A DNA stretch of 64,000 nucleotides from Candidatus Liptonbacteria bacterium (GTDB lineage: Bacteria > Patescibacteriota > Minisyncoccia > UBA6257 > JACOXY01): NCBI GenBank assembly GCA_016182095.1, contig JACOXY010000010.1, positions 334-64,333 on the forward strand. The letters run 5' to 3'. Shown here one piece after another: positions 4,524 to 53,079 of the stretch (position 1 is the stretch's first letter; each line of letters starts with the position of its first letter). A model generated the notes under the pieces. It was not told the DNA's origin, ran no database searches, and saw nothing but the letters and a program-made list of their open reading frames with translations. The position numbers and the translations under genes are program-made.

Positions 4524-4546
4524 AAATTAAAATGTAAAAATCAAAA

Positions 4547-4672
4547 ATCCCTCACTCAAGAAGGAGTTTGGGTCGGTTCTGGAAATCGTAATATTAATTA
4601 CCAACAATAAATTATTAAGATAAAATGAATTTTGAGAAGAAGCGGAAAATGCTCCTTCTTGAGTGAGGGATT
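4547..4672. mobile_element. MITE-like element, family F1 copy 1. About 125 bp with 20-bp perfect terminal inverted repeats ATCCCTCACTCAAGAAGGAG.
   Basis: Terminal inverted repeats read directly. About 92% identical to the copy at 52903-53027. An inverted, more diverged copy lies at 44021-44144. Confidence 0.6.
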
Positions 4673-5052: not shown

Positions 5053-8000
5053 ATGAGGGAAAATAAAAATGAAAATAAAATAGTATCCAAAGCGGAACCA
5101 CGCGAAATAACCACTGAACTCAAGGAGTCTTATCTTGATTACGCGATGTCGGTCATAGTTTCGCGCGCCTTGCCGGATGTCCGCGATGGCTTGAAGCCGG
5201 TACACAGAAGAATTTTGTGGGCCATGTGGGACATGGGGCTTACGCATGGAGCTAAATTCAGAAAATCTGCGAATGTCGTTGGATCCGTCCTCGGCGCGTA
5301 TCATCCGCACGGCGACTCATCCGTGTATGACGCAATGGTGCGATTAGCGCAACCCTTTTCCATGCGCTACCCGCTAATCGAGGGGCAGGGTAACTGGGGA
5401 TGTTTTACCAAGGATACCGAAGTAAAACTTGCAGATGGGCGGAACTTGAGCTTTGGAAAACTCATTGAAGAAGATGCTCGAGGAAAAACCAACTATACAT
5501 ACACGGTCAATAGTTTAGGGTTAATATCGGTGGCAAAAATAGAAAAACCAAGAGTTACAAGAGGTGACGCCGAGCTTATTAGAGTTACACTTGATAATGG
5601 CATCGAGATAAAATGCACCCCAGACCATCGCTTTATGTTAAGAGATGGGAATTATAAAGAAGCTCAGTATTTAACGCCACAAGATTCATTAATGCCGCTT
5701 TATGAAAAGTTGTCCGAAAAAACTGATAGATTAAACATATCAAATTTGATTAGATATGAAATTAGAAATAACCACCGCGTTACTAAAATCGAAAAATTAT
5801 CAGAGAAAGAAGACGTTTACGATCTTACGGTCTCTGGTTCGCACAACTTTTCTTTGGGGGCGGGCATTTTCGTACACAACTCGGTCGACGGGGATTCTGC
5901 GGCGGCGATGCGCTATTGCGTTACGGGCGATACTTTAGTTGTTACGGAAAATGGCCTGCAAAAAATTAAAGACATGCCGGGTAAAACTGATAATTTTGAG
6001 CAGGACATAAATATTAAAATCCTTTCTAGGGAGAAAAAAATCCACAAAGCCAGCAAATGGTTTGATAGTGGAGAGCATCCTACTTTAAAAGTAACAACGA
6101 GCCGCGGCCATCAAATAGAAGGATCATATAATCATCCTTTGCTAACTTTAAATAAAAATGGGAGTGGAAAACCAACATTTCAATGGAAAACTCTTGAACA
6201 GCTTACTGCTGGCGACATAGCGGTTCTGGATCGTTCAAGCGATGTTTTGTGGCCGGAAAAAGAAGTTGCTTTAGATAAATTTTATCCAACTGGCCTGCAT
6301 AATAGAACTGAAAGAAAAAAAATGCCGGCGCGCCTTGATGAGAATCTAGCTTTTATAATCGGCGCCATTATAGCAGAGGGGACTACCAGCAGAAAGAAAA
6401 TTGAGTTTTGCAATAGCGACCTAGAATTTGTTGCTGAATTCGAAAAAAGGTGGGCAAAAGTTTTCCCAGACTGCAGAATTCATAAATTTATTAAACAGCC
6501 CTCATCTTATGGGAAGAAAGAATATTGTCGCTTAGAAATTCATTCTCTTTGTGTGGTTTCATTTTTACACAATCTCGGTCTCAATATCGCCACTTCAGCA
6601 TTTAAAACAATCCCGGAACCAATTTTGCAGTCCCCTAAAAATGTAGCGGCGAGTTTTATTAGGGCTTATTTTGAGGGAGACGGCTCAATATCAAACTCTG
6701 ACAAAATGATTGAGCTTAGTAGCTGTTCCATAAGTAAAAAACTAACTGATGAGCTACAGGTTTTGTTGTTAAAATTTGGCATTGCCGCCACCAAAAGGTT
6801 CGATTCTTACAGAAATAACCATAAATTATACATCCGTGGAAGAAAAAATTATTTAGTATTTGCTGAAAATATAGGATTTGTTTCTGCGCGCAAAAATAAT
6901 AGGTTAAAAAACGTTCTAGGACATTATTTAAAGTTTGCCGCCCCGACAGATTTTATTCCTTATCTAACTGGCTATGTAAGAACATTTGTTGCCATGCCAA
7001 GAAGCGCCGATAGGCAGTTTATTCTCAAAAATAACTTTGATCGGTATCATTATTTGGAGAAAAACGGGGGTAGGGTAGCGCTTGCGGTGCAAGCCACGAC
7101 TGGCTTAAATCTTGAACCCCTATTCAGATCTTTTCTCGGCAATAATTATCTTTTTGATCCTGTGGCCAGCATTGAAAAAACGGGGGTCCAAAAAGTTTAT
7201 TCAATCAGGGTGGATAGTGAATGTCATTCCTTTATTGCGAATGGTTTTATTAATCACAATACAGAGTGCCGCCTCTCTAAAATTGCCGAGGAACTTTTGG
7301 GAGACATAGAAAAAGAAACTGTGGAGTGGCAGCCAAACTATGATTCAAGCCGCGAGGAGCCGAAGGTTTTGCCGTCTAAATTTCCCAACTTGCTCGTGAA
7401 CGGCGGTATGGGTATAGCAGTCGGCATGGCGACAAGCATTCCTCCCCATAACTTGAGCGAAGTGGCGGATGCCGCGGTAAAACTTTTGGATCATCCCAAA
7501 ACCAGCATCTCCGAAATAATGGAGATAGTTAAAGGGCCCGACTTCCCAACCGGCGGGATAATTTATGACCGAAAAAACATAAATGAAGCTTATGCCCTAG
7601 GCCGCGGTTCAATAACCACGCGGGCGCTCGCTGAAATTTCCGAAAAAAAGAGCGGCCAATATGTGATCGTCATAACCGAAATTCCATATCAGGTTAATAA
7701 ATCGGAGTTGATAATCAAAATCGCCGAACTAATCCAGGAAAAAAGAATTGAGGGCGTGAGAGACGTGCGCGATGAATCCGATAAAGACGGCCTCCGAATA
7801 GTAATAGAGCTGAAGAGCGACGTCTCGCCGCAAAAAATCCTAAACCAGCTTTACAAAAACACAGATTTACAGAAAGACTTCCACCTTAATTTGATCGCGC
7901 TTCAAGATCGTGGAATTCAGCCCCAGCTTATGTCTTTGAAAGACATGCTGGAGCAGTTTATCGATCACCGCAAAGAAGTTGTGCGCCGCAGAGCGGAGTT

Positions 8001-9351
8001 TGACCTTAAAAAAGCCAAGGAAAGGGCGCATATTTTGGAGGGACTCGCTAAGGCGCTATCGGTTATTGATAAAATAATCGCCACCATCAAGAAGTCGGGC
8101 GACAAAGAAGAGGCGCATAAAAATTTAATCAAGAATTTCAAGCTTACCGACATACAAGCGACGGCTATCCTCGAAATGCGCCTGCAAACTTTGGCGGCCT
8201 TAGAAAGGCAAAAGATTGAGGACGAGCTAAAGGAAAAACTGAAATTAATAAAAGATTTGGAGATATTGCTTAAGAGCCCCGAAAAAATAAAGGGGGTTAT
8301 TAAGGACGAACTCCAAGAAATGCGGGAAAAATTCGGTGACGAAAGAAGAACCAAAGTAGTGTCAGGCGGGCTGAAGGAGTTCAAAGAAGAAGACCTGGTA
8401 CCGGAAGAAGAAACCGTGATAACCCTTTCCGCGGGCGGGTACATAAAGAGAAGCAATCCGGGAGATTTTAAGGTACAAAAGCGGGGCGGCAAAGGGATAA
8501 TAGGAGGCGATGTCGGTGAAGAAGATTTTGTGCGCCACTTTGTGAGCGCCGTAACTCATGACAACATTTTATTCTTTACCACGAGCGGCAAGGTTTTCCA
8601 AACTAAAGTTTATGAAATACCTGCGGCTTCAAGAACATCAAAGGGAAAGGCCATACATAACTTTTTAGAAATCCCCACCTCCGAATATGTAAGCGCTATT
8701 ATTGCATATCCATCCAACACGCAAAATCAAGAAACCGCGGCATCGGGCTTCCTTGTTATGGTCACCGAAGGCGGCGTTATCAAAAAAACCAAAATTGCCG
8801 ACTTTGAAAATGTCAGAAAAAGCGGCATTATCGCCATTAAATTAAGAAGCGGCGACAAACTCAAATGGGTGGGGTTATCTGAAGCCGGGAACGACATTCT
8901 TATCGCCACCATGAACGGCCAGGCGATCAGATTCAAAGAAAAAGATTTGCGCCCCATGGGGAGGGCGGCAAGCGGCGTTACCGCCATAAGGTTAAAAAAG
9001 GGCGATAAAGTAAATGCCATGGAAATAATTAGAGGAGGAAAAGAGACGCGAGAAACACAGCTCCTCGCGGTTATGGCTAACGGTTACGCCAAGCGCACCC
9101 CCTTAAAAGAATATAAGGTGCAAAGGCGGGGCGGCTCCGGGATTAAAACAGCCAAAATAACGGCAAAGACCGGCTCCATAGTGGCGGCAAGAGTTATAAC
9201 CGAGGAAGAAGAACTTCTGGCTCTTTCAACTAAGGGCCAGATAATCAAGACCTTAATCAAGGATGTGCGCATAGCCGGCCGCGCCACGCAAGGAGTTAGA
9301 ATTATGTCGCTTAAAGCCGGAGATAAAGTGGCGGGGATAGTGTGTCTGTAG
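5053..9351 (+). CDS. gyrA: DNA gyrase subunit A, interrupted by two inteins. Extein total is ~824 aa.
   Basis: GyrA motifs are all present: [37 protein letters not shown]|..|[12 protein letters not shown]|..|[13 protein letters not shown], and the C-terminal beta-pinwheel repeats. Confidence 0.9.
5401..5880 (+). other. Mini-intein (160 aa, no endonuclease domain). Inserted between GQGNWG and SVDGD. Starts with Cys, ends His-Asn, with Ser at +1.
   Basis: CFTKDTEV...GIFVHN|S. The flanking exteins reconstitute the conserved GyrA GN(F/W)G-S(V/I)DGD motif. Confidence 0.7.
5917..7260 (+). other. Intein (448 aa) with a LAGLIDADG homing-endonuclease domain, at the canonical GyrA intein site (AAMRY|C...HN|TE). 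It lies only 12 extein residues after intein 1.
   Basis: CVTGDTLV...FINHN|TECR. LAGLIDADG-like blocks [13 protein letters not shown] and [12 protein letters not shown]. Same insertion point as the mycobacterial GyrA intein. Confidence 0.75.
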
Positions 9352-9446: not shown

Positions 9447-10793
9447 ATGCCTTTTACTCTAACTCGCAACCGCATCATCATCATATTTTTAGTACTTGCT
9501 TTAATTGCCGGGGTTTTTATTGCGGTGCTTCTGGGCAAAAGAATTTTTGTGGGTAAAGCTACTGTGTCTTTAACGGTTTGGGGGGTTTTTGATGACAATA
9601 AGGCGATGGAAAAGGCGATCGCGCTTTACAAAAGCGAAAATCGCAACTTAAGCATCCAGTATGTAAACAAAGCATACGCGCTTGACGACGCCGAAAGTTA
9701 TGAAAAAGAACTTTTGGATGCCCTGGCATCCGGTAAAGGACCGGACATTTTTATGTTTCACAACACTTGGCTTCCAAAACATATTGAAAAAATTGCTCCG
9801 CTTAACGAAGAATTGCAAACCGCGCTCAATTTCCCGTTTGTTAATTATCGTGATGCCTTTCCCAAAGTAATTGAGCAGGATTTCGTGCGCGGCACCACAA
9901 TTTACGCAAGCCCCCTGTATCTGGATACTCTGGCTCTTTTTTACAACAAAGATTTTTTTGATAAAAGGGGCGTGGCGCTTTTGCCCGCCACCTGGGGCGA
10001 ATTTGAAAGCTTGGTTAATAAGATAAAAGAGGTGGATGCTGGCACAAATAACATCACAAAAGCCGGCGCGGCCATAGGCGGCTCGGAAAAAAGCATTAAC
10101 AGAGCCACTGATCTTTTGAGTCTCATGATGCTACAGCGAGGCGTAAAATTCACCGATAGCTCCTTCGGCAGGGCCACATTTGCGAGCATTGGCGGCGAAT
10201 CCGGGTCTAGACCGGGATTGGAAGCGCTTAAATTTTATACCCAGTTTGCAAATCCAAACTCACCTCTTTATACCTGGAATGAGCGCCTGCATTATTCCAT
10301 TGATAGTTTCGCATCAGGAGATACCGCCGCTATCTTCAACTACGCCCACCAAATCCCGGTTATTAAATCCAAAAATCCATTCCTTAATTTTGGCGTCTCG
10401 TCTATGCCACAATTAGCCGGCGCCCCAAATCCCGTAAACTATGCCAACTATTGGGGCCTCGCGGTTTCTAACCAAAGCAAAAATATTCCTTGGGCGTGGC
10501 AATTCATCTTGTCCGCCACTACTAAAGAAAAAATCGCGGGAAGTTATGCCGAAAAGGCGGGAAAGCCGCCGGCGCTACGCACACTAATAGACAAGAGCCG
10601 CAACGATCCCGAGCTTGGAGTTTTCGTGAAGCAAGCGCTAACGGCCAGTTCCTGGCCGCAGATAGACAATGTCCTCGTGGAAACCGCCTTTTCCGACATG
10701 ATAGACGCCGTGGTGCGCGGCCAGCTTACACCCGAAGTGGCGCTAAACAAGGCGGCCGACGAAATATCGGCAGTAATGAGAAAAAAACAGTAA
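9447..10793 (+). CDS. Membrane-anchored extracellular solute-binding protein (SBP family 1 / MalE-like). No adjacent permease or ATPase genes.
   Basis: N-terminal TM, then a sequence typical of ABC-type sugar-binding proteins (GPDIFMFHNTW, WGLAVS). Confidence 0.55.
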   Translation: MPFTLTRNRIIIIFLVLALIAGVFIAVLLGKRIFVGKATVSLTVWGVFDDNKAMEKAIALYKSENRNLSIQYVNKAYALDDAESYEKELLDALASGKGPDIFMFHNTWLPKHIEKIAPLNEELQTALNFPFVNYRDAFPKVIEQDFVRGTTIYASPLYLDTLALFYNKDFFDKRGVALLPATWGEFESLVNKIKEVDAGTNNITKAGAAIGGSEKSINRATDLLSLMMLQRGVKFTDSSFGRATFASIGGESGSRPGLEALKFYTQFANPNSPLYTWNERLHYSIDSFASGDTAAIFNYAHQIPVIKSKNPFLNFGVSSMPQLAGAPNPVNYANYWGLAVSNQSKNIPWAWQFILSATTKEKIAGSYAEKAGKPPALRTLIDKSRNDPELGVFVKQALTASSWPQIDNVLVETAFSDMIDAVVRGQLTPEVALNKAADEISAVMRKKQ

Positions 10794-10805: not shown

Positions 10806-11699
10806 ATGAAAAAAACTTATCGCTTTAAATTAGCTCTTATTCTATTGGTTTTGGCAGTCATCCCAATTCTCGCAAACGCCCAATCCATCATAAATCCCGA
10901 CGAGTGTTCAGGAATTTTTGATTTCATCCCGGCCGATAAAGCCAGATACTGCACTCTGTGCGACGGACTGCAAGCGGTAAAAAATGGATTGCTACTGCTT
11001 TTGAAAATTGGTGTGGGGCTCGCCGTGATAATCATTGCTTACGGCGGAGTGCTTATTATGGTTTCGGGCGCAAGTCCCGGCAAATTTGAGCAAGGCAAAA
11101 AAGCGATTATTGGTTCCGTGGTTGGGGTCGCGATCGGCGCTATGGCATGGATCATCATCAATCAAATTTTCTTCATCTTTGTAACGCAAAGCGTAACTCT
11201 GCGTCCCTGGAACGATATCCCCTGTCCCCAAGAACCGCCGAGATTTGGAGCATCATTGGGAGGCACTGGCGGCCCTGGGGGCACTGGCGGCACAGGTGGA
11301 ACAGGCGGTACGGGCGGCACAGGAGTATCTGTAACTGACAACGCCAGAGTAAAAGCTCTATTAGACCCCAGTATTCGATATAACAATAATTCATGCCCAC
11401 CAACCTGTGTGGGGGGATTGCCACAAACCACCATAGATAAGTTAAACACGCTACAGGCGCAGTGCGGGTGCGTTGAAATTACCGGCGGCACAGAACCAGG
11501 CCACGCCTCTCATGGACCAGGCCTTGCTGTCGTTGATATTCGTTACAATCAAAGGGCAATTGATGGTTTGCGAAACATGGGCTACTCCGAAAGCAACTTT
11601 GGAACTGGCTACACCTGTGAACCGGCAGGAGGGAATACTGGCGGAACAAGGGTTCTGTGCAACAGCGGGCGCGCGGATAAAATGCATGTGGAGTTCTAG
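10806..11699 (+). CDS. VirB2/TrbC-like pilin paralog 1: signal peptide, hydrophobic helix pair, GGT-rich linker (GGTGGPGGTGGTGG...) and Cys-rich C-terminal domain.
   Basis: Signal peptide plus LLLLLKIGVGLAVIIIAYGGVLIMVSGASPGKFEQGKKAIIGSVVGVAIGAMAWIIINQIFFIF two-helix hairpin, typical of conjugative-pilin-type subunits. Confidence 0.45.
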   Translation: MKKTYRFKLALILLVLAVIPILANAQSIINPDECSGIFDFIPADKARYCTLCDGLQAVKNGLLLLLKIGVGLAVIIIAYGGVLIMVSGASPGKFEQGKKAIIGSVVGVAIGAMAWIIINQIFFIFVTQSVTLRPWNDIPCPQEPPRFGASLGGTGGPGGTGGTGGTGGTGGTGVSVTDNARVKALLDPSIRYNNNSCPPTCVGGLPQTTIDKLNTLQAQCGCVEITGGTEPGHASHGPGLAVVDIRYNQRAIDGLRNMGYSESNFGTGYTCEPAGGNTGGTRVLCNSGRADKMHVEF

Positions 11700-11975
11700 A
11701 ACCCATCTCAAAAGTATATTCAAGCCGCGTTCTTAGCAATTTTTCAGGTATCCGCAAGGCACGACGAGGAAGGTGTAGCCTATGCGCTACTCCGACGAGG
11801 AGTAACGAAGCGGAACCTGAAAAATTGCAAGAACCCATTCGGGATACGGCCAATTTCTGTCTGATACTTTGTCGCTTCGGGCTTAATGTATCTAAAGATA
11901 CACCTTCGCCCTTGCTCCTCGTACAGACAGAAATTGGCCTGTATCGCGGCCGAAGATACTTTTGAGATGGGTTCT
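11698..11975. mobile_element. 278-bp non-coding element with 20-bp perfect terminal inverted repeats (AGAACCCATCTCAAAAGTAT) and two nested internal inverted repeats. MITE-like or structured RNA, lying between pilin genes 1 and 2.
   Basis: Terminal inverted repeats at 11698-11717 and 11956-11975. Inner inverted repeats ggatacggccaatttctgtctg / cagacagaaattggcctgtatc and cgacgaggaaggtgta / tacaccttcgcccttgctcctcg. Confidence 0.55.
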
Positions 11976-11994
11976 AATTTGATACAATATAAAA

Positions 11995-12928: not shown

Positions 12929-13155
12929 GCCAACCAGAATTAAGGTGGGCCTGCTATGACCCAGAAACAGGAAAGGCTATTGGCGGCGCGATTGGAGAAG
13001 CGGGATTGGATAACTGCAACGCCAATTGCCCAAGAGACTGCGCTTTATGTGAACCAGACGGAGGAGTCGATTGTGAAAATTAGAATTTGCTTAATATGTT
13101 ATAATATAGATAACATTAAACATGAAAGGTCGGATTTAATAATGAAATGTAAAAT

Positions 13156-13518
13156 ATGAAGAGTCTTAAAGCAAATATCGTGACGGGCCTTGCTGCTGGT
13201 TTAGCGGCGTTCCCGGCGCTTGCGGGCGCGCAGGTAGATAGTTTCGGCGCCATAGTCAATGTAATTCAAAGAGCGATTTCCTGGATATTCGCGCTATTTA
13301 TACTTTTGGCGGTTGTTTTCGTTCTTTACGCCGCTTTTAAGTATTTGACTTCAAGAGGCGATTCAGGAAAGGTTGGCGAAGCAAGCCAGGCGCTAATTTA
13401 CGCGGCAGTTGCAATCGGCGTGGCGCTCATTGCGGCGTCCATCCAATTCATAGTCGCGGAGCTCTTGGGATTAAATTCCGTAGAATTAGTAATTCCTGAC
13501 CCGTTTTTTATCCAATAA
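13156..13518 (+). CDS. VirB2/TrbC-like pilin paralog 4 (120 aa).
   Basis: Signal peptide (AFPALAGAQ), then ISWIFALFILLAVVFVLYAAFKYLTSRGDSGKVGEASQALIYAAVAIGVALIAASIQFIV. Confidence 0.45.
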   Translation: MKSLKANIVTGLAAGLAAFPALAGAQVDSFGAIVNVIQRAISWIFALFILLAVVFVLYAAFKYLTSRGDSGKVGEASQALIYAAVAIGVALIAASIQFIVAELLGLNSVELVIPDPFFIQ

Positions 13519-13598: not shown

Positions 13599-14132
13599 TC
13601 AATATATCATCCGAAGATCCAGGGATCCCTCTCCCCAAACTTCCCAAGTCCCGACAATTAAGTCCAGCTTGTCTCCAGTTCCGAAAAACTTTGTGTAAAC
13701 TCCATTATATCGGACGCAAAGATATCTTGTATAGAACCAATTAATATCCCCGCCGGAAATCTTGATTCTTACGGGCTTTACCCCGGCTAAATTGGATGCA
13801 GAGCAAGCGCGCTCACCCATAGGCCCAATTTCTAACTTCACATTATCTCCGGTTGCCACATTGGCGATAAGACATCCAGTTTCAGAAAGATCGTGCACAA
13901 CATCCGATCCGGAAACGCTTGGACATGGCACTACCACTTTGATTACAGATTTTTCGGCATCCGTTCCAGAATTTTGCCTTCCATTACCGCATCCCTTTGC
14001 GATCAGAAGTAAGGAAACTCCGAGGAAAAGAAGTGATTTCCAGGCAAACCCAAGCCATGGAGCTAACTTCAGCCAAATTGCTCCCGGAGTTATTGGCTGT
14101 GTCCCCGAGCCGCTTCTACTTACGTCAGCCAT
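13599..14132 (-). CDS. Secreted/membrane-anchored hypothetical protein.
   Basis: ORF with N-terminal hydrophobic segment (LLFLGVSLLLIAKGC). No recognisable domain. Confidence 0.3.
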   Translation of the reverse strand: MADVSRSGSGTQPITPGAIWLKLAPWLGFAWKSLLFLGVSLLLIAKGCGNGRQNSGTDAEKSVIKVVVPCPSVSGSDVVHDLSETGCLIANVATGDNVKLEIGPMGERACSASNLAGVKPVRIKISGGDINWFYTRYLCVRYNGVYTKFFGTGDKLDLIVGTWEVWGEGSLDLRMIY

Positions 14133-15493: not shown

Positions 15494-15577
15494 GCTGGGG
15501 TGGCGAAATGGCAGACGCACCAGCTTTAGGAGCTGGCGCCGCAAGGCGTGGAGGTTCAAATCCTCTCCCCAGCACCA
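15494..15577 (+). tRNA. tRNA-Leu (anticodon TAG). Class II tRNA with long variable arm and encoded CCA.
   Basis: Folded by hand: acceptor GCTGGGG/CCCCAGC, D-arm GCG..GG..CGC, anticodon stem CCAGC/GCTGG with loop TTTAGGA, variable arm CGCCGCAAGGCGT, T-arm GGAGG TTCAAAT CCTCT, discriminator A + CCA. Confidence 0.85.
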
Positions 15578-15796
15578 TTGAGGAAATTACAAGTTTTGAA
15601 GGTTCGCCTCGCTTCCTAGAGCGTCCGTGCGGACGCACGGAGTAGCTCGCTCGGCGACTAATTCGTATTGGATTTTCGGGGCAAAAACGAATTGGCGATT
15701 TTGAAAGAAGAAAAGAAAAATTTTTAATCATTGAATTCATAACTTTTAAGGTTTTAAGATAAGAAACGGCAGAGATGCTGATTTTTGGTTTTGAGC

Positions 15797-16616: not shown

Positions 16617-16894
16617 AAAATCTCAATCATTGTAATTTTCATAAAAATTCTATATTATTTATGTATTCGTCTTGCGAATTCTGAATTGGTTGCCGCCAAA
16701 GAAAAATTGGAAATTGTTATCGGTGCGGCTTCGCCGCAAGTTCTGAATTTTTTTGCGGAGGGATTTCCTCGCCGCCGCAGGCGGCGAAATGCATTCGAAC
16801 TAATTCAAGAATACTGCACTTTGTGCGAGATGTTCTATTGTGGGGCGCTAGCGCCAACGCAAACATATTTGCTTGAGCCACAATCTAGACACAA

Positions 16895-17251: not shown

Positions 17252-18199
17252 CTATCTTCTCTTCCCATGGAAAGCTTTATGCACTTCTTTAAGGCCCTTG
17301 TTCGTGATGTGAGTATAAACTTGGGTGGTTGCGATATTCGCGTGCCCCAAAAGTTCCTGCACCGAGCGCAAGTCGGCTCCGTTTGTTAAGAGGTCGGTCG
17401 CGAAAAAATGCCTCAACATATGCGGAGTTATGCGATCTTGAACGCCAATTTGTTTGGCATAACCGTCAACCATTCTTTGGACCGCGCGAGATGTAATTCG
17501 CCCAATTACTTTTTCGCGCCTATTTGACCTATTAGACTCATTAGACTGGTGGGGCTTATTATTTTTATTCAGCGCCGGGTTGCCAGCGGCAAAACTTACA
17601 AACATCGCCTCTTCCGCGTCTTCCCTGCGATCAAGATAATTTTTAATTGCTTTTTTTGCTACATCCGCAAAAAAAACCACGCGAATTTTGTCTCCCTTGC
17701 CGCGCACACTTAACTCTCCGCGGTCTAAATTAATATAGCGGTTCAGGGCACACAATTCTGATAAGCGCAGCCCGGTAGAAAATAGTGTTTCCAAAATCGC
17801 CTTATCCCGCAAACCGCGAAGCGTTCCCGTGTCCGGCGCCCCCAAAAGAGATTTCAAATCCCGCTCGTCAGGAATATCAATTTGCCGCGATGGAGTCTTA
17901 GGAAGCTCAATTTTATCGGGAGATAAAACTTTTAAATCACGCTTGATTAAATACTTCAAAAAATTGCGAAGCGCTATTATATAATAAGCCTGGGTATTTT
18001 TTTTAATTTCTCTTCTCGCGAGCCAAAGTCTGAAGTTTCTGATTAGCTCTGCGTCTATATCTCTTACCGATTTTAGCTTGGACCACCCTAAAAAGATTTT
18101 TAGATATCGCCCATAATTTTCCTGTGTTTTTATGGATCGTCCTTTTTCAATCTCTAAATAATCCAGATATTCGTTTAGGTATTTCTCCGCTTCGTTCAT
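17252..18199 (-). CDS. xerC: Tyrosine site-specific recombinase, XerC/XerD family. Carries an in-frame N/K/S-rich low-complexity insertion.
   Basis: N-terminal SAM-like domain (YLDYLEIEKGRSIKTQENYGRYLKIF) and catalytic domain with R..HxxR..Y (HMLRHFFATDLL, LLGHANIATTQVYTH). Confidence 0.7.
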   Translation of the reverse strand: MNEAEKYLNEYLDYLEIEKGRSIKTQENYGRYLKIFLGWSKLKSVRDIDAELIRNFRLWLARREIKKNTQAYYIIALRNFLKYLIKRDLKVLSPDKIELPKTPSRQIDIPDERDLKSLLGAPDTGTLRGLRDKAILETLFSTGLRLSELCALNRYINLDRGELSVRGKGDKIRVVFFADVAKKAIKNYLDRREDAEEAMFVSFAAGNPALNKNNKPHQSNESNRSNRREKVIGRITSRAVQRMVDGYAKQIGVQDRITPHMLRHFFATDLLTNGADLRSVQELLGHANIATTQVYTHITNKGLKEVHKAFHGKRR

Positions 18200-24779: not shown

Positions 24780-25091
24780 ACTTAAGCCCTCTACGAGGAC
24801 GGTCCTCGTAGAGAATGGTTTATTTCACAAAAGGGTTCGGGAACCACTTTGTGAAATAGTTGAAAACGCGTTGCGAGGTAAAATTAAAAATTTCAAGGCT
24901 TGCCGACAAAGCTGTATCCGGTGCGATACAGCGAGGAGACATAACACAGAAATTTTTAATTTTAACCGCAACCCAAAGAGATATGCCAATTTAAAAGAAT
25001 CGCGGTGTTGCCCCTCGTCGTCGTATCACTGGGGATACGCCGTCCTCGTCACGTCTTGCGCTTCTTTTAAATTGGCTATATCGCGCCTCAA

Positions 25092-26099
25092 CTATTTCAC
25101 AAAGGGGTTCCTAGCTCCCTCAACTTCAAAATGCAAATGACATCCCGTGCTACCATGCACATTGCCGGTATTCCCGATTTTGGCAACCTGCGCGCCTTTC
25201 TCAATAAAATCACCCATCTGAACCAGATTTTCTTTGGTGTGAGCATAGGTTGTCTTAGTGCCGTTATTATGTTCTAAAACCACAAAGCCGCCATATCCGG
25301 AGTTCCATTTATCAGGACTACCAACTTTTAGAACCAAGCCGTCGGCTGATGCATAGACAGGGGTGCCGCAAACATTCGCTATATCCACGGCATTCGCTTG
25401 ATGCAAAACTCCCCAGTTCCAGCTATTTAAGAGTGCCGGAAAACCGAAAAATCCAACAATGGAAGGCAACTGCGGCAAAGAGCTTATGATAGAAGCCAGA
25501 GTTCTTTGGGGCTTACCGCTCGGGATAATGAGTGACGTGCCAGCTTTTAGTTCCAGGGAATTTTCAATCTTATTCGCCGATTTTATTTTTGAAACATCAA
25601 CCCCAAAGACAGAAGCAACTGACGCAAGCGTGTCGCCATCTTTAGTTTTATAAAGCACTCCGGAAACCGGCAAAATAATAAGTTCTTCATCAATACTTAA
25701 AACACCGCGGCCGATTTTAGGATTGGCCCAAAGAATAGTATTAACGGATATGCCAAATTGAGCTGCTATTTTGGAAAGATTGTCGCCAGACCGAACCCGA
25801 TATACCATAAGACCATTTTGCACCTCGGTTCCCCCGCCAAAAACAGAGCCCCTGTTATAGACAGAGGCGCTCGCCTCTGAAATTAGCCCACGCCCCCCTT
25901 CGCCCCCCAACCCCATTCCCTCGGTCGGAGCGCCTGGATTCTGGAGAGCATACAAAACCACTGATTCATCCCCAGAATTAATGTAGAAAGCGCCATCCGC
26001 AGGACCGCCAAAAACGCCGTTTCGCAAAATATCGGCCGAGGCAGAATTAAGAACCGCGTTCAGAGTTAAAACCGCAAAAACAAGAACGCTTACAAACAA
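25092..26099 (-). CDS. Secreted LysM-domain + M23 family metallopeptidase.
   Basis: LysM (YRVRSGDNLSKIAAQFGISV, YKTKDGDTLASVASVFGVDV) and M23 motifs (HNNGTKTTYAH, GNTGNVHGSTGCHLHFE). Confidence 0.8.
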   Translation of the reverse strand: MFVSVLVFAVLTLNAVLNSASADILRNGVFGGPADGAFYINSGDESVVLYALQNPGAPTEGMGLGGEGGRGLISEASASVYNRGSVFGGGTEVQNGLMVYRVRSGDNLSKIAAQFGISVNTILWANPKIGRGVLSIDEELIILPVSGVLYKTKDGDTLASVASVFGVDVSKIKSANKIENSLELKAGTSLIIPSGKPQRTLASIISSLPQLPSIVGFFGFPALLNSWNWGVLHQANAVDIANVCGTPVYASADGLVLKVGSPDKWNSGYGGFVVLEHNNGTKTTYAHTKENLVQMGDFIEKGAQVAKIGNTGNVHGSTGCHLHFEVEGARNPFVK

Positions 26100-26183: not shown

Positions 26184-26311
26184 TATAATGCGAAACTACG
26201 AATGAATCATGCCTATAGCCTGTCGGCTCGGCCGATTAAGGCGAAACTTGCGAATAAGAGATTTGCCCTTTTCGCGTATTTCGCATGAGTTTATTAGCAC
26301 ATTTCGCATTA
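26184..26311. mobile_element. Repeat family F2 copy 1. About 128 bp. Core ATGCCTATAGCCTGTCGGCTCGGCCGATTAAGGCGAAA, ends carry ATAATGCGAAA inverted repeats.
   Basis: Core is identical in three places (26208, 40668, 44908). GCGAAA/TTTCGC-rich flanks read directly. Confidence 0.6.
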
Positions 26312-26354
26312 TGCTTGGTTCAAACAAAAAAGCCGCTTACGCGACTACCCCATT

Positions 26355-28253
26355 ATGCTACCACAAAACTTAAACAAAAAACAAATGGAGGCTGTGGAGA
26401 GTCCCGAGGGGCCGCTTCTAATAGTAGCTGGCGCCGGATCGGGCAAAACCAGGACGCTAACCAGCCGCCTGCAGTATTTGTTGTCCAAAAACATTAACCC
26501 CAGCTCCATTATTGCCATCACTTTTACCAATAAAGCGGCCGACGAAATGCGCGGTAGAGTTCAGAAGTTCATAGGTTCAAATCAGCCGTTCATTGGCACC
26601 TTTCATTCTTTGGGAGCGCGGATCCTAAGAAGAGAGACGGCGAGCTTGGGGAGGGGCGCTAATTTCAGCATTTTTGACTCCGATGACTCCTTAAGCGCCA
26701 TTAAAAAAACCATTAAAACTCTCGCGCTTTTAAAACAAGACAAGGCGGGTCCCACCATGTTTCGCTTTTATATTTCAAAAATTAAAAATGATCTGCTCCG
26801 GCCATCCGATTTATTGGAAGGAACAAAGCTCGCAAATTTGGAGGCGGTGTATGAAGAATATGAAAATCAATTAAAACGGATAAATGCCTTTGACTTTGAC
26901 GACTTGATTGAAAAACCAGTAAAACTTTTTGCGCGGAATCCCACGATTTTAAACGAATATCGCGAGCGCTTTAAATATATCTTGGTTGATGAATTTCAGG
27001 ATGTTAATACCGCCCAATATCAATTTATAAAGCTCCTGGCCAAAGAACATAAAAACATAAATGTGGTCGGGGATGACGCGCAATCTATATACAAATTTAG
27101 GGGGGCGAATTTCCAGCATTTCCTTAATTTTGAAAGCGATTGGCCAAATGCCAAAGTTGTGTTTTTGGAAGAAAATTATCGCTCAACCGGGAATATTATT
27201 TCGGCAGCTTCGGCGGTGGTGGGGGAAAATAAACTGCAAAAACAAAAAAATCTTTGGACGCGAAATCCCGCTGGAGCCCCAATATCTATCATGGAGCACA
27301 GAGATGAAATTGGTGAGGCAGAGTGGATAGCAAACAATATTAAAAATCCTTACACGGCCGAGCCGTCCGAGACCGTCCGCGGTCGGACTAGGTCAGGCTT
27401 TAGGCAAATATCAAAAATAAAAAATAAGGAGGCTGCCGCCATTTTATATAGAACTAACGCGCAATCGCGGGCAATTGAGCAGGCGTTGATTGAAAGAGGA
27501 ATCTCTTACCAAATTTTCGGGAGCATAAGGTTCTACGAAAGAAAAGAAATAAAAGATCTTGTTGCATGCCTCCGCTATGCCTGGAATCCAAAAGATCTTA
27601 TTAGCCTGGAGAGATTATCCAAAAACTTTCTTAAAAAACCATATTTAATTCTTCAAGCAGAGCTCCCCCAAAGGGCCTCGGGGCAGGCCGCGCTTTCGCC
27701 ATACGAACTTTTAATTTATGTGATAAATACCACCAAATATTTTGATTATTTAAAACAAAATTATCCAAATGCCGAAGAGCGCGCGGAAAATATTAAGGAG
27801 CTTTTGAATTTCGCGTCAGCCCACAATGATTTGGGCGGGTTTTTGGAAAAAATCACGCTTTTGCAGTCAAATGATGATCAAAACAGTCGCGTAACGACAA
27901 CTAATAACAAAAGCGGGCGTCCTGTTATAAGTAATAAGTTATCGGTTGTAAATTTAATGACAATCCACATCGCCAAGGGCCTTGAGTTTGATAGGATTTA
28001 TCTCGCGGGATGCAACGAGGGGCTCTTGCCGCATCAAATGTCATATAGCTCTCCCGACGAAATAGAGGAGGAGAGAAGGTTGATGTACGTAGCAATGACC
28101 CGAGCCAAGCAGGAGCTCATTTTAAGCTTTTATGATGTTGGATCAAGGTTTCTATACGAAATTCCCCCGGAATTAATAAAATTCCAAAGCGCGTTAAAAT
28201 CAGAGCAGGAAGAATTTTTGGATGACGAAGAAAGATATATCGTGCACGACTAG
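26355..28253 (+). CDS. pcrA: UvrD/PcrA-type ATP-dependent DNA helicase.
   Basis: Walker A AGAGSGKT. Helicase motifs DEFQDVN, VGDDAQSIY, ENYRS, MTIHIAKGLEFD. Confidence 0.85.
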   Translation: MLPQNLNKKQMEAVESPEGPLLIVAGAGSGKTRTLTSRLQYLLSKNINPSSIIAITFTNKAADEMRGRVQKFIGSNQPFIGTFHSLGARILRRETASLGRGANFSIFDSDDSLSAIKKTIKTLALLKQDKAGPTMFRFYISKIKNDLLRPSDLLEGTKLANLEAVYEEYENQLKRINAFDFDDLIEKPVKLFARNPTILNEYRERFKYILVDEFQDVNTAQYQFIKLLAKEHKNINVVGDDAQSIYKFRGANFQHFLNFESDWPNAKVVFLEENYRSTGNIISAASAVVGENKLQKQKNLWTRNPAGAPISIMEHRDEIGEAEWIANNIKNPYTAEPSETVRGRTRSGFRQISKIKNKEAAAILYRTNAQSRAIEQALIERGISYQIFGSIRFYERKEIKDLVACLRYAWNPKDLISLERLSKNFLKKPYLILQAELPQRASGQAALSPYELLIYVINTTKYFDYLKQNYPNAEERAENIKELLNFASAHNDLGGFLEKITLLQSNDDQNSRVTTTNNKSGRPVISNKLSVVNLMTIHIAKGLEFDRIYLAGCNEGLLPHQMSYSSPDEIEEERRLMYVAMTRAKQELILSFYDVGSRFLYEIPPELIKFQSALKSEQEEFLDDEERYIVHD

Positions 28254-35569: not shown

Positions 35570-36784
35570 ATGCCCCATAAATTAATAGACATACCGCAAG
35601 AAATTAGGGTTTGGTTAGCGTCAGAGGCCGCCACACAGCACATCGTGTTTATAAATAAACAGTTTGCTTTTGTTGAGGAAAAAATGAGAATAATACCTAT
35701 TTTGTTATTTCAGCTGACATCAAAAGAAATCCAACCGCAAGATTTTGTAAGTGAACTAAGCGACTGGTTAGATGTGAGCTCAGAATCCGCAAGGACACTC
35801 GCAAGAGAAATTGAAGAAAAAATTTTAGAGCCGATCAAGAGACCTCTTTTAAACTGGGGCATTGATATAAGCCTGATAAAAATAGGGGCTTTGAGTGAAG
35901 AGCTACGCCCAATCATTGCGCCCCCGCCTCCTTTGCCCCCCGACTTGCCCCCCGAAGCCTCGGCGAAGGGGGGAGCTTTAGCGCAGGAGGGCGCCACCAC
36001 ACCCAAAATATCAATATTCCCTTCTGCGAGTGAACCCCAAAAATCCTACACCCCTCCGCCGCCACCCGCCCCGGGGAAAAGTTTTGAGCCGTCATTTATG
36101 GGTGGCGCTCCGCGCACAGAAGATCTTGGCGCAAAAAAAATAAGGGCAATTGGCGGCACCCATGGCATTGGGGAAGAAAGTGAGCGCGAGGATAAGTCCT
36201 TCGGCGAAGCTCAGGACAAGCCCTTTATTATTCATAAGGAACCCTCGTTAGAGCCGGTTTCTAAAGATTTGCCATACGCAATCCCGTCCATCCCAAGCTC
36301 GCAAAACGAACAAAAAAACATACCAAGGCCGGATTTAGTGGCGCGCGCAAGAGAAGGGCAAACTCCGTGGCAGGATTTGATTCCCAAAAAAGAGCACTCC
36401 TCTCACGCTAAGGAAAAGCCCTTCGGCGAAGCTCGGGGCAAGCCCGTAGTCCTACCGCCCAAGCCAGTCGGAAAGAATTTAAGAGAACAAACACCACACA
36501 ATAATCCGGATTTAGCGGAACAAGCAAAACCAAGAAAAGAGGTGAGGCTCCCGGAGTCATCTTTTAAGATCGTGCATTATGACGAAGAAGAGCTGGCCGC
36601 AAAAGAGAAATTTAAAGCTATACCAAAACCAAGCGCCCCCCTAGACGGAACGTTAAGGGGCGAGCATTCTGTAAAACAGAATGTTTTAGCCAAGCCAGCC
36701 GATCTGCCAATGTTGCCCGATAAAGATGTTCATAAAAATAAACCCGGGCCCAAAGTTAAGGGGAATATGGTAGACCTTAGGTAA
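35570..36784 (+). CDS. Pro-rich protein with internal KPFGEA(Q/R)(D/G)KP repeats. No TM.
   Basis: PPPPLPPDLPPE and PPPPPAPG tracts. DNA-level ~30-nt repeat near 36193-36240 and 36417-36460. Confidence 0.3.
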   Translation: MPHKLIDIPQEIRVWLASEAATQHIVFINKQFAFVEEKMRIIPILLFQLTSKEIQPQDFVSELSDWLDVSSESARTLAREIEEKILEPIKRPLLNWGIDISLIKIGALSEELRPIIAPPPPLPPDLPPEASAKGGALAQEGATTPKISIFPSASEPQKSYTPPPPPAPGKSFEPSFMGGAPRTEDLGAKKIRAIGGTHGIGEESEREDKSFGEAQDKPFIIHKEPSLEPVSKDLPYAIPSIPSSQNEQKNIPRPDLVARAREGQTPWQDLIPKKEHSSHAKEKPFGEARGKPVVLPPKPVGKNLREQTPHNNPDLAEQAKPRKEVRLPESSFKIVHYDEEELAAKEKFKAIPKPSAPLDGTLRGEHSVKQNVLAKPADLPMLPDKDVHKNKPGPKVKGNMVDLR

Positions 36785-37611: not shown

Positions 37612-37755
37612 AAGTTCTAAATCCTAAACCCTAAATTCTAAACAAATTTAAAACCAAATTTTAAAGTTCAAACCAGTATTTATTTTGCTTTGTGTTTAGA
37701 GTTTAAAGTTTTAAGTTTGTTTAGAGTTTAGAAATTAGAATTTAGAGTTTAATTT
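37612..37755. repeat. Inverted array of telomere-like CCCTAAA / TTTAGAG heptamers forming a long imperfect hairpin between the prgI-like and virB4-like genes.
   Basis: ctaaatcctaaaccctaaattctaaac vs gtttagagtttagaaattagaatttagagttta read directly. Confidence 0.45.
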
Positions 37756-40642: not shown

Positions 40643-40716
40643 ATATAATGCGAAAGTACGAATACATTATGCCTATAGCCTGTCGGCTCGGCCGATTAAG
40701 GCGAAATTTGCGAAAC
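40643..40716. mobile_element. Repeat family F2 copy 2 (truncated, lacks right end). Overlaps the annotated start of ORF 40648.
   Basis: atataatgcgaaagtacgaatacattatgcctatagcctgtcggctcggccgattaaggcgaaatttgcgaaacc read directly. Confidence 0.6.
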
Positions 40717-43151: not shown

Positions 43152-43544
43152 CTAACGTTCAAACGTTGAAGCAGATAGAGACTTTTCTAATCCCAAAAGC
43201 TTGAAATATTCTTTTTCAAGAAGCGCTTGAAGCGTCTTAACTTCTTCTACTAAAACAAAGTTTTCCTGTAGAGCTATTTTTACACACCCAACACACTCTA
43301 CTGTTGAGCCAATAGATCTTCGTATATATAAAATGAAAGATTTTTTTGTTGGTTGAGCGCTTCCTTCAACAATATTTAACACAATAGAAGTTGCCGCCCT
43401 TTTTAGCTGATTTACTAACGAAAAAAGCTCGTCTTTGGGAAACTTTTTAGTCACTTTATAAATCTCTTTAACAATATCCATTGCTATTCGGTAAACTTCC
43501 AAATTTTCAAAGCGATAATTTTTAAATTTTTTTTCGCTTTCCAT
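43152..43544 (-). CDS. Four-helix-bundle protein (TIGR02436 family), second copy. Flanked on both sides by AACG-type phased repeats.
   Basis: YRFENLEVYRIAMDIVKEIYKVTKKFPKDE...SIVLNIVEG family pattern. Confidence 0.65.
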   Translation of the reverse strand: MESEKKFKNYRFENLEVYRIAMDIVKEIYKVTKKFPKDELFSLVNQLKRAATSIVLNIVEGSAQPTKKSFILYIRRSIGSTVECVGCVKIALQENFVLVEEVKTLQALLEKEYFKLLGLEKSLSASTFER

Positions 43545-43586: not shown

Positions 43587-44021
43587 CTACACCAGCGTTA
43601 TCACCACATGCCTCTCTTTTCCCATCCCCTCGCTCCCGGTTTTAACTTCCGGATGAACCGCGAGCGCGGTGTGTACCAGTCGCCGCTCGTAGGAATTCAT
43701 TGGCGGCAAAGCGATTGGTTCTTTGGTGGCTATAACTTTTTTGGCGGCCGCCCTGGCAAGCTCCGAAATAATGCGCTCTCTCTCCATCCGATAATTATTG
43801 ACGTCAACAAAAAACGGCGGCTCGTTCTCACGTTTGGCAATAAGCTGGGCCACAATATTAAAATCCTGCACAAAATGACCCAGGTTTTTCTCTATAACCG
43901 GGGTTAGCTCGTCACTAATAAAGATAGAAATCTTCCTTGCTGATTCGTCGCACTTTACGTCCGATTCTTCAAAGCCCATCTGCTCAACAATTTTTTTAAT
44001 TGTGTCGGGTACATTGGTCAT
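43587..44021 (-). CDS. jag: Jag/KhpB-like RNA-binding protein (KH + R3H domains).
   Basis: C-terminal R3H motif (MNSYERRLVHTAL). Position downstream of yidC in the conserved rpmH-rnpA-yidC-jag order. Confidence 0.7.
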   Translation of the reverse strand: MTNVPDTIKKIVEQMGFEESDVKCDESARKISIFISDELTPVIEKNLGHFVQDFNIVAQLIAKRENEPPFFVDVNNYRMERERIISELARAAAKKVIATKEPIALPPMNSYERRLVHTALAVHPEVKTGSEGMGKERHVVITLV

Positions 44022-44144
44022 CCCTCACTCAAGAAGGAGCATTTTCTGCTACTTCTTGTATTAATATTAATTTGATTTAATGTTCAGAATAATCATGGTA
44101 TAACGACTGTTTAATTGATGGCTCACACTCCTTCTTGAGTGAGG
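44021..44144. mobile_element. MITE family F1 copy 3 (inverted orientation, interior diverged) between jag and yidC.
   Basis: Same terminal inverted repeats TCCCTCACTCAAGAAGGAG / CTCCTTCTTGAGTGAGGGA. Interior begins cattttctgct, the reverse complement of the copy-1 interior end. Confidence 0.5.
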
Positions 44145-44157
44145 GATTTTTGATATT

Positions 44158-44877
44158 TTATTTAGATAGCGCTCTATTTATAATATATTGCTGTAAAATT
44201 GAAAAGGCGGTTGTAGATGCCCAATAAAGAGATATGGCCGAGGGAAACCCCCACAATAAAACCAGGGTGATCCCCGGCATCATATAGGTCATATTGCGCG
44301 AGACCTGCTCGGCTGTGCTTAGTTCTTTTTTGCTCTTGCCGTCTTCCGCCGCCTTCGCCGCGGCATATCGTCCTTGAAAATACTGTAAAATAACCGCAAC
44401 GATAATGAGGATAATACTACGTTCGCGCATATTTATCAAGCCCAAAAATATAAAGTTCACTCCATCCCGCAGGGCAATTGATGGGTAAAGGGCCACGAGC
44501 GCTCCGTCTCCCAATCCCCTAAACAGGCCATACATTGCTATGAAAATAGGAAGTTGTAAGAGCAAAAAAAGAAATCCGGAGAAGGGGTTGACCTTGTGTT
44601 CTCTGTATAAATCCAAAAGCGCCTCTGATTGCTTTTGGGTATCGTTTTTGTGCTTTTCTTGAATTTCCTTTATTTTTGGCTGAAGCTTTTGCATTATTGA
44701 CTGGTGATACATTCCCTTATGAAAAAGCGGATAAAGAACAATTCGAACAGCGAGCGTGAGTATAATTATGGCGATGCCAATATCATAAAGGACAAGGTTG
44801 TCATAAATAAAAAACAGGACGACGTAAAGTCCGTTGAATATTGGACGATAGAATATTTCGTAGAGAAAGGAAAACAT
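44158..44877 (-). CDS. yidC: Membrane protein insertase YidC (short form).
   Basis: Multi-TM, with the conserved YidC/Oxa1 core. Synteny with rnpA and rpmH. Confidence 0.75.
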   Translation of the reverse strand: MFSFLYEIFYRPIFNGLYVVLFFIYDNLVLYDIGIAIIILTLAVRIVLYPLFHKGMYHQSIMQKLQPKIKEIQEKHKNDTQKQSEALLDLYREHKVNPFSGFLFLLLQLPIFIAMYGLFRGLGDGALVALYPSIALRDGVNFIFLGLINMRERSIILIIVAVILQYFQGRYAAAKAAEDGKSKKELSTAEQVSRNMTYMMPGITLVLLWGFPSAISLYWASTTAFSILQQYIINRALSK

Positions 44878-45017
44878 ATATATAACGCGAAATTGGCGAA
44901 TCTTTTATGCCTATAGCCTGTCGGCTCGGCCGATTAAGGCGAAATTGGCGAAAAGAGTCATTTTGTTTTTTTTATTATTTCGCGTGTTTCGCATACTCAA
45001 TTCGTAGTTTCGCATTA
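44878..45017. mobile_element. Repeat family F2 copy 3 with both terminal GCGAAA-rich arms, between yidC and rnpA.
   Basis: Identical core. Right end ttcgtagtttcgcattat is the inverse of the copy-1 left end tataatgcgaaactacgaa. Confidence 0.6.
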
Positions 45018-45338
45018 TTTTAAAAACTTTAAAATATTGCTGGCTTCTTTTTGTAGGTCTTTTTTTGTTAAATCGTTAACCGCCGGCAATATGGTAATAA
45101 TAACATCTTTGCCGGGTTCTAGGCCCTTGCCGGCAATTCTAATAAATTCATAAACTTTTCTTTTAAGAGAGTTTCTCTTGGGTGCTTTTTTGTTAATTTT
45201 ATTACCCACCACAACGCCAAACCGAGAAAAATTCAGGGCAGATCCCATAATTTTAATAACAAAAAAGTTGTTCCTCACAACTTTTCCCGGCTTTTTATAA
45301 AAATATTGAATTGGAAGGCGATATTTTTTGGCAAGCAT
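45015..45338 (-). CDS. rnpA: Ribonuclease P protein component.
   Basis: Basic protein (KKYRLPIQYF...RNSLKRKVYEFIR). Lies immediately downstream of rpmH. Confidence 0.8.
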   Translation of the reverse strand: MLAKKYRLPIQYFYKKPGKVVRNNFFVIKIMGSALNFSRFGVVVGNKINKKAPKRNSLKRKVYEFIRIAGKGLEPGKDVIITILPAVNDLTKKDLQKEASNILKFLK

Positions 45339-52866: not shown

Positions 52867-52902
52867 ATAAGCTTAATATAAAATATAAAAAATTAAATAT
52901 CA

Positions 52903-53027
52903 ATCCCTCACCCAAGAAGGAGTTTGGGTTGGTTCTAGAAATCGTAACATTAATTACCAACAATACATTATTAAGATAAAATTAATTTTGAGAAGAAGCA
53001 GAAAATGCTCCTTTTTGAGTGAGGGAT
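52903..53027. mobile_element. MITE family F1 copy 2 (about 92% identical to copy 1).
   Basis: Terminal inverted repeats ATCCCTCACCCAAGAAGGAG / CTCCTTTTTGAGTGAGGGAT and near-identical interior. Confidence 0.6.
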
Positions 53028-53079
53028 CAAATATAAACGGATTGATTTTTAATTTTAAGTATGCGACACTGTTAATATT

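Follow-up and report, generated by a model that had tools for sequence, protein, structure and literature searches.

Small dispersed repeats (SDRs) of heterocyst-forming cyanobacteria are reportedly hairpin units of 21–27 nt that can sit inside one another, inside heptamer arrays or inside mini-transposons. The genomes of CPR bacteria are tiny and streamlined, and to our knowledge almost nothing has been established about their repeats and non-coding elements. The paper on SDRs by Elhai et al. 2008 (Genome Res 18:1484) is among the references of PMC3116915 and PMC2884548. In the REP/BIME/REPIN systems, the inverted units themselves are conserved and a RAYT transposase gene is linked to them (PMC3116915); the same source cites IS1397 and REP hairpins as IS targets. 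The subject here is F2, a repeat family from a CPR bacterium. In anatomy F2 is closest to REP/BIME/REPIN, and in behaviour its closest analogue would be the SDRs, by analogy and not by membership.

The stretch of DNA that was analysed (the window) is 64 kb long and comes from a MAG labelled Candidatus Liptonbacteria (CPR). The window contains the 38-mer ATGCCTATAGCCTGTCGGCTCGGCCGATTAAGGCGAAA three times, always on the + strand (26209–26246, 40669–40706 and 44907–44944). An earlier note on this DNA had reported three identical cores; their number and identity hold exactly, but each of the starts it gave (26208, 40668 and 44908) is off by one. No further match with up to three mismatches was present in the window (the expectation from shuffles being 0), and a covariance-model search for the core, with filters switched off, turned up no degenerate copies elsewhere in it. 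Alignment and repeat finding gave the extents of the elements around the three cores:

26184–26312, + strand: F2 copy 1, a full palindromic element of 129 bp
26185–26195 and 26302–26312: terminal arms of copy 1
26212–26242, + strand: the 31-nt module CCTATAGCCTGTCGGCTCGGCCGATTAAGGC within copy 1
40644–40715, + strand: F2 copy 2, 72 bp, the left half only (left arm, core and first GCGAA units)
44882–45018, + strand: F2 copy 3, a full palindromic element of 137 bp

Copy 1 begins with a left arm that carries two CGAA units 8 nt apart and leads into the 38-nt core; after the core come two GCGAA units 9 nt apart, a spacer, and inverted TTTCGC units. The arms of F2 are built of GCGAA(A/T)-type units 8–9 bp apart, two of them 5′ of the core and two 3′, with inverted counterparts further right, and clusters of GCGAAA/TTTCGC occur in the window at the three F2 places only. 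The inverted GCGAAA-rich arms that had been noticed before were found at the ends of copies 1 and 3, as ATAATGCGAAA and TTTCGCATTAT (with one mismatch at the left end of copy 3), and 19 nt of the left arm of copy 1 recur, reverse-complemented, in the right arm of copy 3. Copy 2 had rightly been called truncated, as it is without its right half. No target-site duplication is visible at copy 1 or copy 3, whose flanks (..TAGTAGGT / GCTTGGTT.. and ..ACATATAT / TTTAAAAA.., respectively) contain no direct repeat.

The fold of copies 1 and 3 is a long branched hairpin from which the core projects as a side hairpin. The folding z-scores are −4.8 (+ strand) and −5.5 (− strand) for copy 1, and −3.2 (+ strand) and −5.3 (− strand) for copy 3; copy 2 alone folds no better than shuffles. 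Since copies 1 and 3 fold on both strands, no RNA strand is singled out. The inner 30–31 nt of the core make up a separate unit, CCTAWAKCCTGTCGGCTCGGCCGATTAAGGC, here called the module. In copy 1 it contains the inner hairpin GTCGGC-TCG-GCCGAT, with a G-T wobble on the + strand; the corresponding G-U pair exists only on the strand as written. Direct reading of the core also reveals the palindrome TCGGCCGA.

The identity of the core is 38/38 in every pair of F2 copies. The left arms, compared pairwise, are identical at 21/25, 17/26 and 18/26 positions (65–84%), and the right part at 51/77. The contrast between an invariant core and diverged flanks, to which the earlier note had drawn attention, is therefore real and strong, and the core is conserved far beyond what the divergence of the arms predicts. 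The window holds a second repeat family, F1, at three places:

4546–4672: F1 copy
44020–44147: F1 copy
52902–53028: F1 copy

F1 has perfect terminal inverted repeats of 20–21 bp, ATCCCTCACTCAAGAAGGAG, around an interior of about 85–88 bp; two of the copies agree in this interior at 87%, the remaining one has an unrelated interior, and the arrangement is that of a classical MITE. The conservation of F2 is the opposite of that of F1, which indicates that the centre of F2 is its constrained or recognised part. One copy of F1 fills the yidC-jag spacer, which in relatives is 7–114 nt long.

All copies of F2 are intergenic, and the three gene contexts first proposed for them (M23/uvrD, the T4SS locus and yidC/rnpA) are all correct. 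The spacer that holds copy 1 is 255 nt long and separates the divergent genes for an M23/LysM peptidase (25092–26099, −) and uvrD (26355–28253, +). Copy 2 is flanked by two genes of a T4SS-like locus, which is conserved and includes a VirB4/TraG-like ATPase, pilins and PrgI. The neighbours of copy 3 are yidC (44158–44877, −) and rnpA (45015–45338, −), in the dnaA-rpmH-rnpA-yidC-jag region, and the copy is antisense to that operon. The stop codon of rnpA (45015–45017) is inside the right terminal arm of copy 3. For MBI2035360.1, a 256-amino acid protein of the T4SS locus, the deposited start is the ATG at 40648, in the left terminal arm ATAATGCG of copy 2, which contains two further in-frame starts of the same protein, an ATG at 40669 (in the core) and a TTG at 40708. 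The claim that copy 2 supplies the annotated start codon is thus upheld, with the qualification that the codon belongs to the arm and not to the core. The ortholog of this protein in the closest relative, L005 (GCA_964616565.1), aligns from residue 38 onward only, which suggests that about 33 N-terminal residues are derived from the element. Because no canonical start codon is found between copy 2 and the conserved signal-peptide region of the protein, the element would supply these residues together with the start codon. F2 has been co-opted at two sites, where it forms the beginning of the T4SS-locus protein and the end of rnpA, and such elements distort annotation accordingly: a start codon and about 33 residues in one gene, a stop codon in the other.

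The module was then sought outside the source genome by one exact-pattern scan each of species-representative genomes and of metagenomes, with 22–23-nt sub-patterns, a design under which variants with one mismatch fall outside the scans. The exact 22–23-mer is very rare: it was found in three contigs, one among the species-representative genomes and two in metagenomes. L001 is a contig of a MAG labelled Saccharibacteria, L002 is from a soil or rhizosphere metagenome, and L003 is from a groundwater metagenome; for all three these are bin or metagenome labels and not a verified taxonomy. The module of copy 1 is identical to that of L002 over 30 nt, and matches L003 at 34/35 and L001 at 31/33 positions. 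Thus, the core is not confined to its source genome, as the inner 30–31 nt occur in three unrelated contigs; confinement to the three places in the window was the outcome that the earlier note would have taken to mean recent duplication only. Six copies are known, in four independent contexts, and all six share an invariant block, CCTA-A-CCTGTCGGCTCGGCCGATTAAGG, with R before it and Y after it. Outside this block, no similarity of L001–L003 to the window or to each other was found. The unrelated flanks of L001 and L003 form long stems that carry the module at their tip (z −3.5 and −4.0, respectively), and the element in L002 folds weakly. Every outside contig with an exact 20–23-mer holds a single copy.

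The L002 contig has a GC content of about 50–60%, and its element lies in an island of 35% GC. This module-bearing island (1800–2100) is beside a FAD-monooxygenase gene of 58–63% GC, with few long open reading frames downstream. L002 may be a chimeric contig, or its host may be something other than a CPR bacterium. In L003, the best homologue of the HD-domain neighbour is only about 60% identical, too distant for a comparison at the orthologous site. Several origins for the core were considered and set aside. An rRNA or tRNA origin does not agree with the lack of any match in E. coli genomes and the presence of the exact 22–23-mer in three contigs only; phage and plasmid collections gave no match; and matches in IMG/VR are attributed to chance, as that in L004 is inside a high-GC coding region and those in L013–L016 are without a hairpin or pairing flanks. 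A coding reading was also rejected: frame 1 is open in the window copies only, and L002 and L003 are without a start codon.

One of the outside copies can be compared with an equivalent site that is without the module. The site is in the window, 37 nt downstream of tRNA-Leu:

15615–15647, + strand: ‘empty’ host hairpin CCTAGAGCGTCCGTG/CGGACGCACGGAGTAGCT, 33–34 nt, without the core

In L001, the module is flanked by TCCTAGAGCGTCCGTG on one side and CGGACGCACGGAGTAGCT on the other. At 15615–15647 of the window, these flanks are 100% identical and directly abutted, i.e., 16 and 18 bases stand around a clean gap of 31 nt. L001 without its 31 nt therefore equals the window hairpin, which places the module in the loop region of another small GC-rich hairpin. 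On this comparison of sequences, the 31-nt block would have been either inserted into the L001 hairpin or precisely lost from 15615–15647; this is the one filled/empty pair known. The hairpin itself, a GC-rich 33-nt sequence (CCTAGAGCGTCCGTGCGGACGCACGGAGTAGCT) with no Rfam match, may be a second conserved mini-module. A different kind of exchange is seen in L002, whose AATTAG-unit arms match arm families of L005 at 89–95% over 20–29 nt; in L005, arms of this type surround a GC-rich centre which differs from the module. One centre with different arms, and the same arms with different centres, are a further sign of modularity. The module is a unit in its own right, being invariant amid changing surroundings, present within unrelated hairpins or short-unit arrays of other uncultured bacteria, and delimited as a clean 31-nt block.

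Syntenic loci of relatives were gathered through YidC homologues (59–79% identical), and gene order at these loci is conserved. The rnpA-yidC spacer, which is 137 nt in the window, measures 12–13 nt in L006–8 and L012, 32 nt in L010, 67 nt in L009 and 82 nt in L005. The covariance model of the core gave no match in about 96 kb of syntenic DNA of the relatives, some of which have at the same hot spots between genes palindromic elements of another kind. As the syntenic spacers lack the core and some contain other palindromes, F2 is specific to its lineage at these sites; insertions would give this picture, and an ancestral regulatory element would not. F2-type elements thereby mark intergenic hot spots that differ between close relatives. 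L005 contains at least two abundant palindromic intergenic families with AT-rich units every ~9 bp (ATAACAGATGCCAATATACTAATG... and AATTAG), some elements having GC-rich centres, such as the one at 13095–13128 of L005; hot spots are common to L005 and the window, and the elements in them are different:

6000–6130, 9520–9665, 13620–13860, 15560–15670 and 16050–16100 of L005: palindromic elements
8230–8400, 13060–13235, 16760–16830 and 17195–17250 of L005: palindromic elements, second coordinate group

The F2 arms were also compared with the palindrome that L005 has between rnpA and yidC, and homology was rejected: unit types are shared, and the local alignment score is not above that of shuffles.

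In the window, further intergenic inverted repeats lie at 37616–37746, 11697–11976 and 24840–25111; the units of the first are 9 nt long and CTAAA/AATTAG-like, and thus similar to the type of arm seen in L005 and L002. Two genes for four-helix-bundle proteins of 23S_rRNA_IVP type are present (43152–43544, −, and 2232–2630, −). The gene at 43152 looks like an inserted cassette, since L006 and L012 are without a gene between the T4SS-like locus and jag; similar genes in L005 have inverted repeats of AATTAG units on their flanks. Inside a 404-amino acid open reading frame of the T4SS locus, the sequence ..CCCTTCGGCGAAGCTC(A/G)GG.. occurs at 36184–36223 and at 36406–36445, 222 nt apart, and is similar to a GC-rich centre found in one of the intergenic elements of L005 (..CCTTCGGCTTAGCTCAGGA..); a repeat inserted in frame could account for this, or simply a repeat in the protein. 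Finally, an open reading frame of 1432 amino acids (5053–9351) gave DNA_topoisoIV, DNA_gyraseA_C and Intein_splicing in a pooled Pfam scan, which suggests an intein-containing GyrA.

What, then, holds the module constant? It could be a structured RNA motif selected by the host (a protein-binding hairpin, or a catalytic or processing signal), for which the arms are only scaffolds. The invariant centre within variable self-complementary flanks (L001, L003, copies 1 and 3) agrees with this, as do the better folding of the written strand, whose inner hairpin alone has the G-U pair, the junction-closing stem, in which C:G of copy 1 is replaced by U:A in copy 3, and the orientation of five of the six copies, which point the same way as the downstream gene. 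Against it, copy 3 is antisense to its operon, and the outer arms of copies 1, 3 and L001 fold equally well or better on the opposite strand. The covariance and structure analysis that had been proposed as a check gave no support from covariation for a function: paired and unpaired bases of the core are equally invariant and, as no base of the module varies, counts of pairs are uninformative about covariation. Rfam 15 at the gathering threshold found tRNA-Leu only in the whole window, and even at E values up to 10 the best matches (surroundings of copy 1, L001 and 15560–15760) were spurious ones of 10–18 bits. By eye, the invariant bases fit neither a hammerhead, a k-turn, a group II domain V nor a tRNA fragment. 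Proximity to promoters had been suggested as a further check, and no sigma-70-like promoter or intrinsic terminator is present within any F2 copy, so that the signals of an independent small RNA gene are absent; as CPR promoters are poorly known, this is weak evidence. The neighbouring genes are uvrD and those for the M23 peptidase, T4SS proteins, yidC, rnpA, an LTD protein, a FAD monooxygenase, a cupin and HD_4 proteins; no gene class is common to the contexts of the window copies and L001–L003, and the consistent position and orientation upstream of one gene class that mark a riboswitch or leader are not seen. The module is also absent from the syntenic spacers of all sampled relatives. Altogether, a host-selected RNA is regarded as unlikely, though it is the chief rival to the reading preferred below.

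The same constancy might reflect a site on double-stranded DNA, recognised by a recombinase, by a nucleoid or replication factor, or by a relaxase-type nicking enzyme linked to the T4SS. Core sites of recombinases or relaxases are ~30 bp, which is the size of the stretch that is absolutely conserved here, and the core contains a palindrome; the window has an XerC/D-like recombinase gene (17252–18199) and the T4SS-like locus, and copy 3 is ~1.1 kb from dnaA. But relatives without the core show synteny at the T4SS locus, the Xer gene and the origin region, the core is without dyad architecture of the 11-6-11 type, plasmid and phage collections gave no match, and self-complementary flanks, which always surround the core, are unneeded by a duplex binding site; such a site is improbable. 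There is similarly little probability in a neutral history, i.e., a recent local duplication in which gene conversion homogenised the GC-rich centre, the outside matches being rare transfers of a functionless fragment. That only three copies occur, in one orientation within 19 kb, and that the core is very rare in public collections, would suit such a history. Conversion, however, would not end sharply at the same 38 nt while the arms differ by 16–35%, and the same 30 nt are kept in four sequence contexts in different organisms. It is very improbable indeed that the core is a solitary unit like a CRISPR repeat, with a hairpin and a 3′ handle ending GATTAAGGC. The likeness, which we take to be to the Cas12d (CasY) repeats of CPR bacteria, is one of resemblance only (31–38 nt, a hairpin inside and a tail rich in A at the 3′ end), whereas no spaced tandem array is seen (each outside contig has one copy, and in the window the distances between copies are 14.5 and 4.2 kb) and no cas gene is in the window.

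The interpretation to which we give roughly an even chance is that F2 is a non-autonomous, selfish palindromic repeat like REP, BIME or MITE, built around a very small, probably insertable hairpin module. The module behaves like a very small insertable unit, possibly a mobile one, and not like a gene-specific regulator. The earlier note had read the conservation of the core as a sign of function, as a protein-binding site or small RNA. Conservation beyond the arms and beyond one genome is borne out; a host regulatory site or small RNA is not favoured over a selfish repeat, because there is no Rfam match, promoter, terminator, common neighbour or covariation, the module is absent in relatives, and a 31-nt insertion or deletion separates L001 from the window hairpin. 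For a selfish repeat of this kind, a trans-acting factor would recognise the module on a folded single strand; candidates would be a DNA-acting enzyme of HUH/RAYT type, or a route through RNA like the one proposed for the SDRs of cyanobacteria. Recognition by such a factor would explain both the spread and the perfect conservation of the module. The partner is hypothetical, since scans of the open reading frames for domains found no transposase, HUH, RAYT or reverse-transcriptase gene in the 64-kb window. Effects on the host (protection of mRNA 3′ ends or insulation of transcripts, as for REP/BIME) would be secondary. Counting against the selfish repeat are the lack of a visible target-site duplication at copies 1 and 3, the lack of a partner gene in the window, the number of copies (only six), the number of contexts (four) and the single filled/empty pair; moreover, an RNA or DNA site under selection by the host would equally account for 30 nt that stay perfectly conserved across lineages. 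If the module is active at all, its activity is sporadic, given its rarity in public collections.

Perhaps the module belongs to something larger. It is possible, though we hold this only tentatively, that it is a member of an undescribed class of ultra-small insertable hairpin elements in CPR/Patescibacteria. The hairpin at 15615–15647 and the GC-rich centres of the relatives could then be further members, and such elements would move into hairpin loops and into the short-unit arrays of other repeats, and would cross lineage boundaries. Their sequence would be invariant as the complete recognition signal for an enzyme, or as something itself catalytic. If the insertion of the 31-nt block and its invariance across lineages are true, the module is among the smallest mobile or selected elements known, and it offers a handle on a nucleic-acid-processing activity in organisms that cannot be cultured. 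If F2 is only a selfish repeat like REP, it is a modest addition to a well-known class.

The likeness to known systems can be set out point by point, F2 being a demonstrated member of neither the SDR nor the REP/BIME/REPIN families. Classical MITEs, the Correia elements of Neisseria and the palindromic elements of Rickettsia share with F2 terminal inverted repeats (present in copies 1 and 3), a length of 70–140 bp and an intergenic position, and MITEs and in-frame palindromic elements share the donation of gene ends. Unlike MITEs, F2 has termini that are less conserved than its centre, copies 1 and 3 are without target-site duplications, and no related autonomous IS was found in the window; F1, in the same window, behaves as a textbook MITE, whereas F2 does not. 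A block lodged in the loop or at the centre of a different palindromic repeat, as in L001 compared with 15615–15647, recalls elements of the IS1397 type, but those are full insertion sequences encoding a transposase, and the block here is non-coding and has 31 nt.

With REP/BIME, F2 has in common extragenic palindromic, GC-rich units of 30–40 nt in inverted pairs, forming hairpins of ~100–150 nt (copies 1 and 3 fold as such inverted doublets, z −3.2 to −5.5), as well as location in operon spacers, lack of target duplication and likely action as a single-strand hairpin. The conserved part is different: in REPIN it is the inverted REP units, whereas in F2 a single asymmetric module is conserved (100% in the core) and the inverted arms drift (65–84%). 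REP sequences are species-specific, whereas the F2 module is common to distant lineages, and the linked RAYT gene of REP/RAYT systems has no counterpart seen with F2 in the window. SDRs differ from the module in length (21–27 nt, compared with 31 nt), in host (cyanobacteria, compared with CPR/uncultured bacteria) and in sequence, there being no similarity; only six copies of the module are known, so that its copy number and recent mobility are conjectural. Both are very short hairpin units that reside within tandem short-unit repeats or mini-transposon-like palindromes, are nested in other repeats, have a patchy distribution and encode no protein. For the module, what was observed is its position within arrays of GCGAA or AATTAG units spaced by 8–9 bp, and its nesting within another hairpin.
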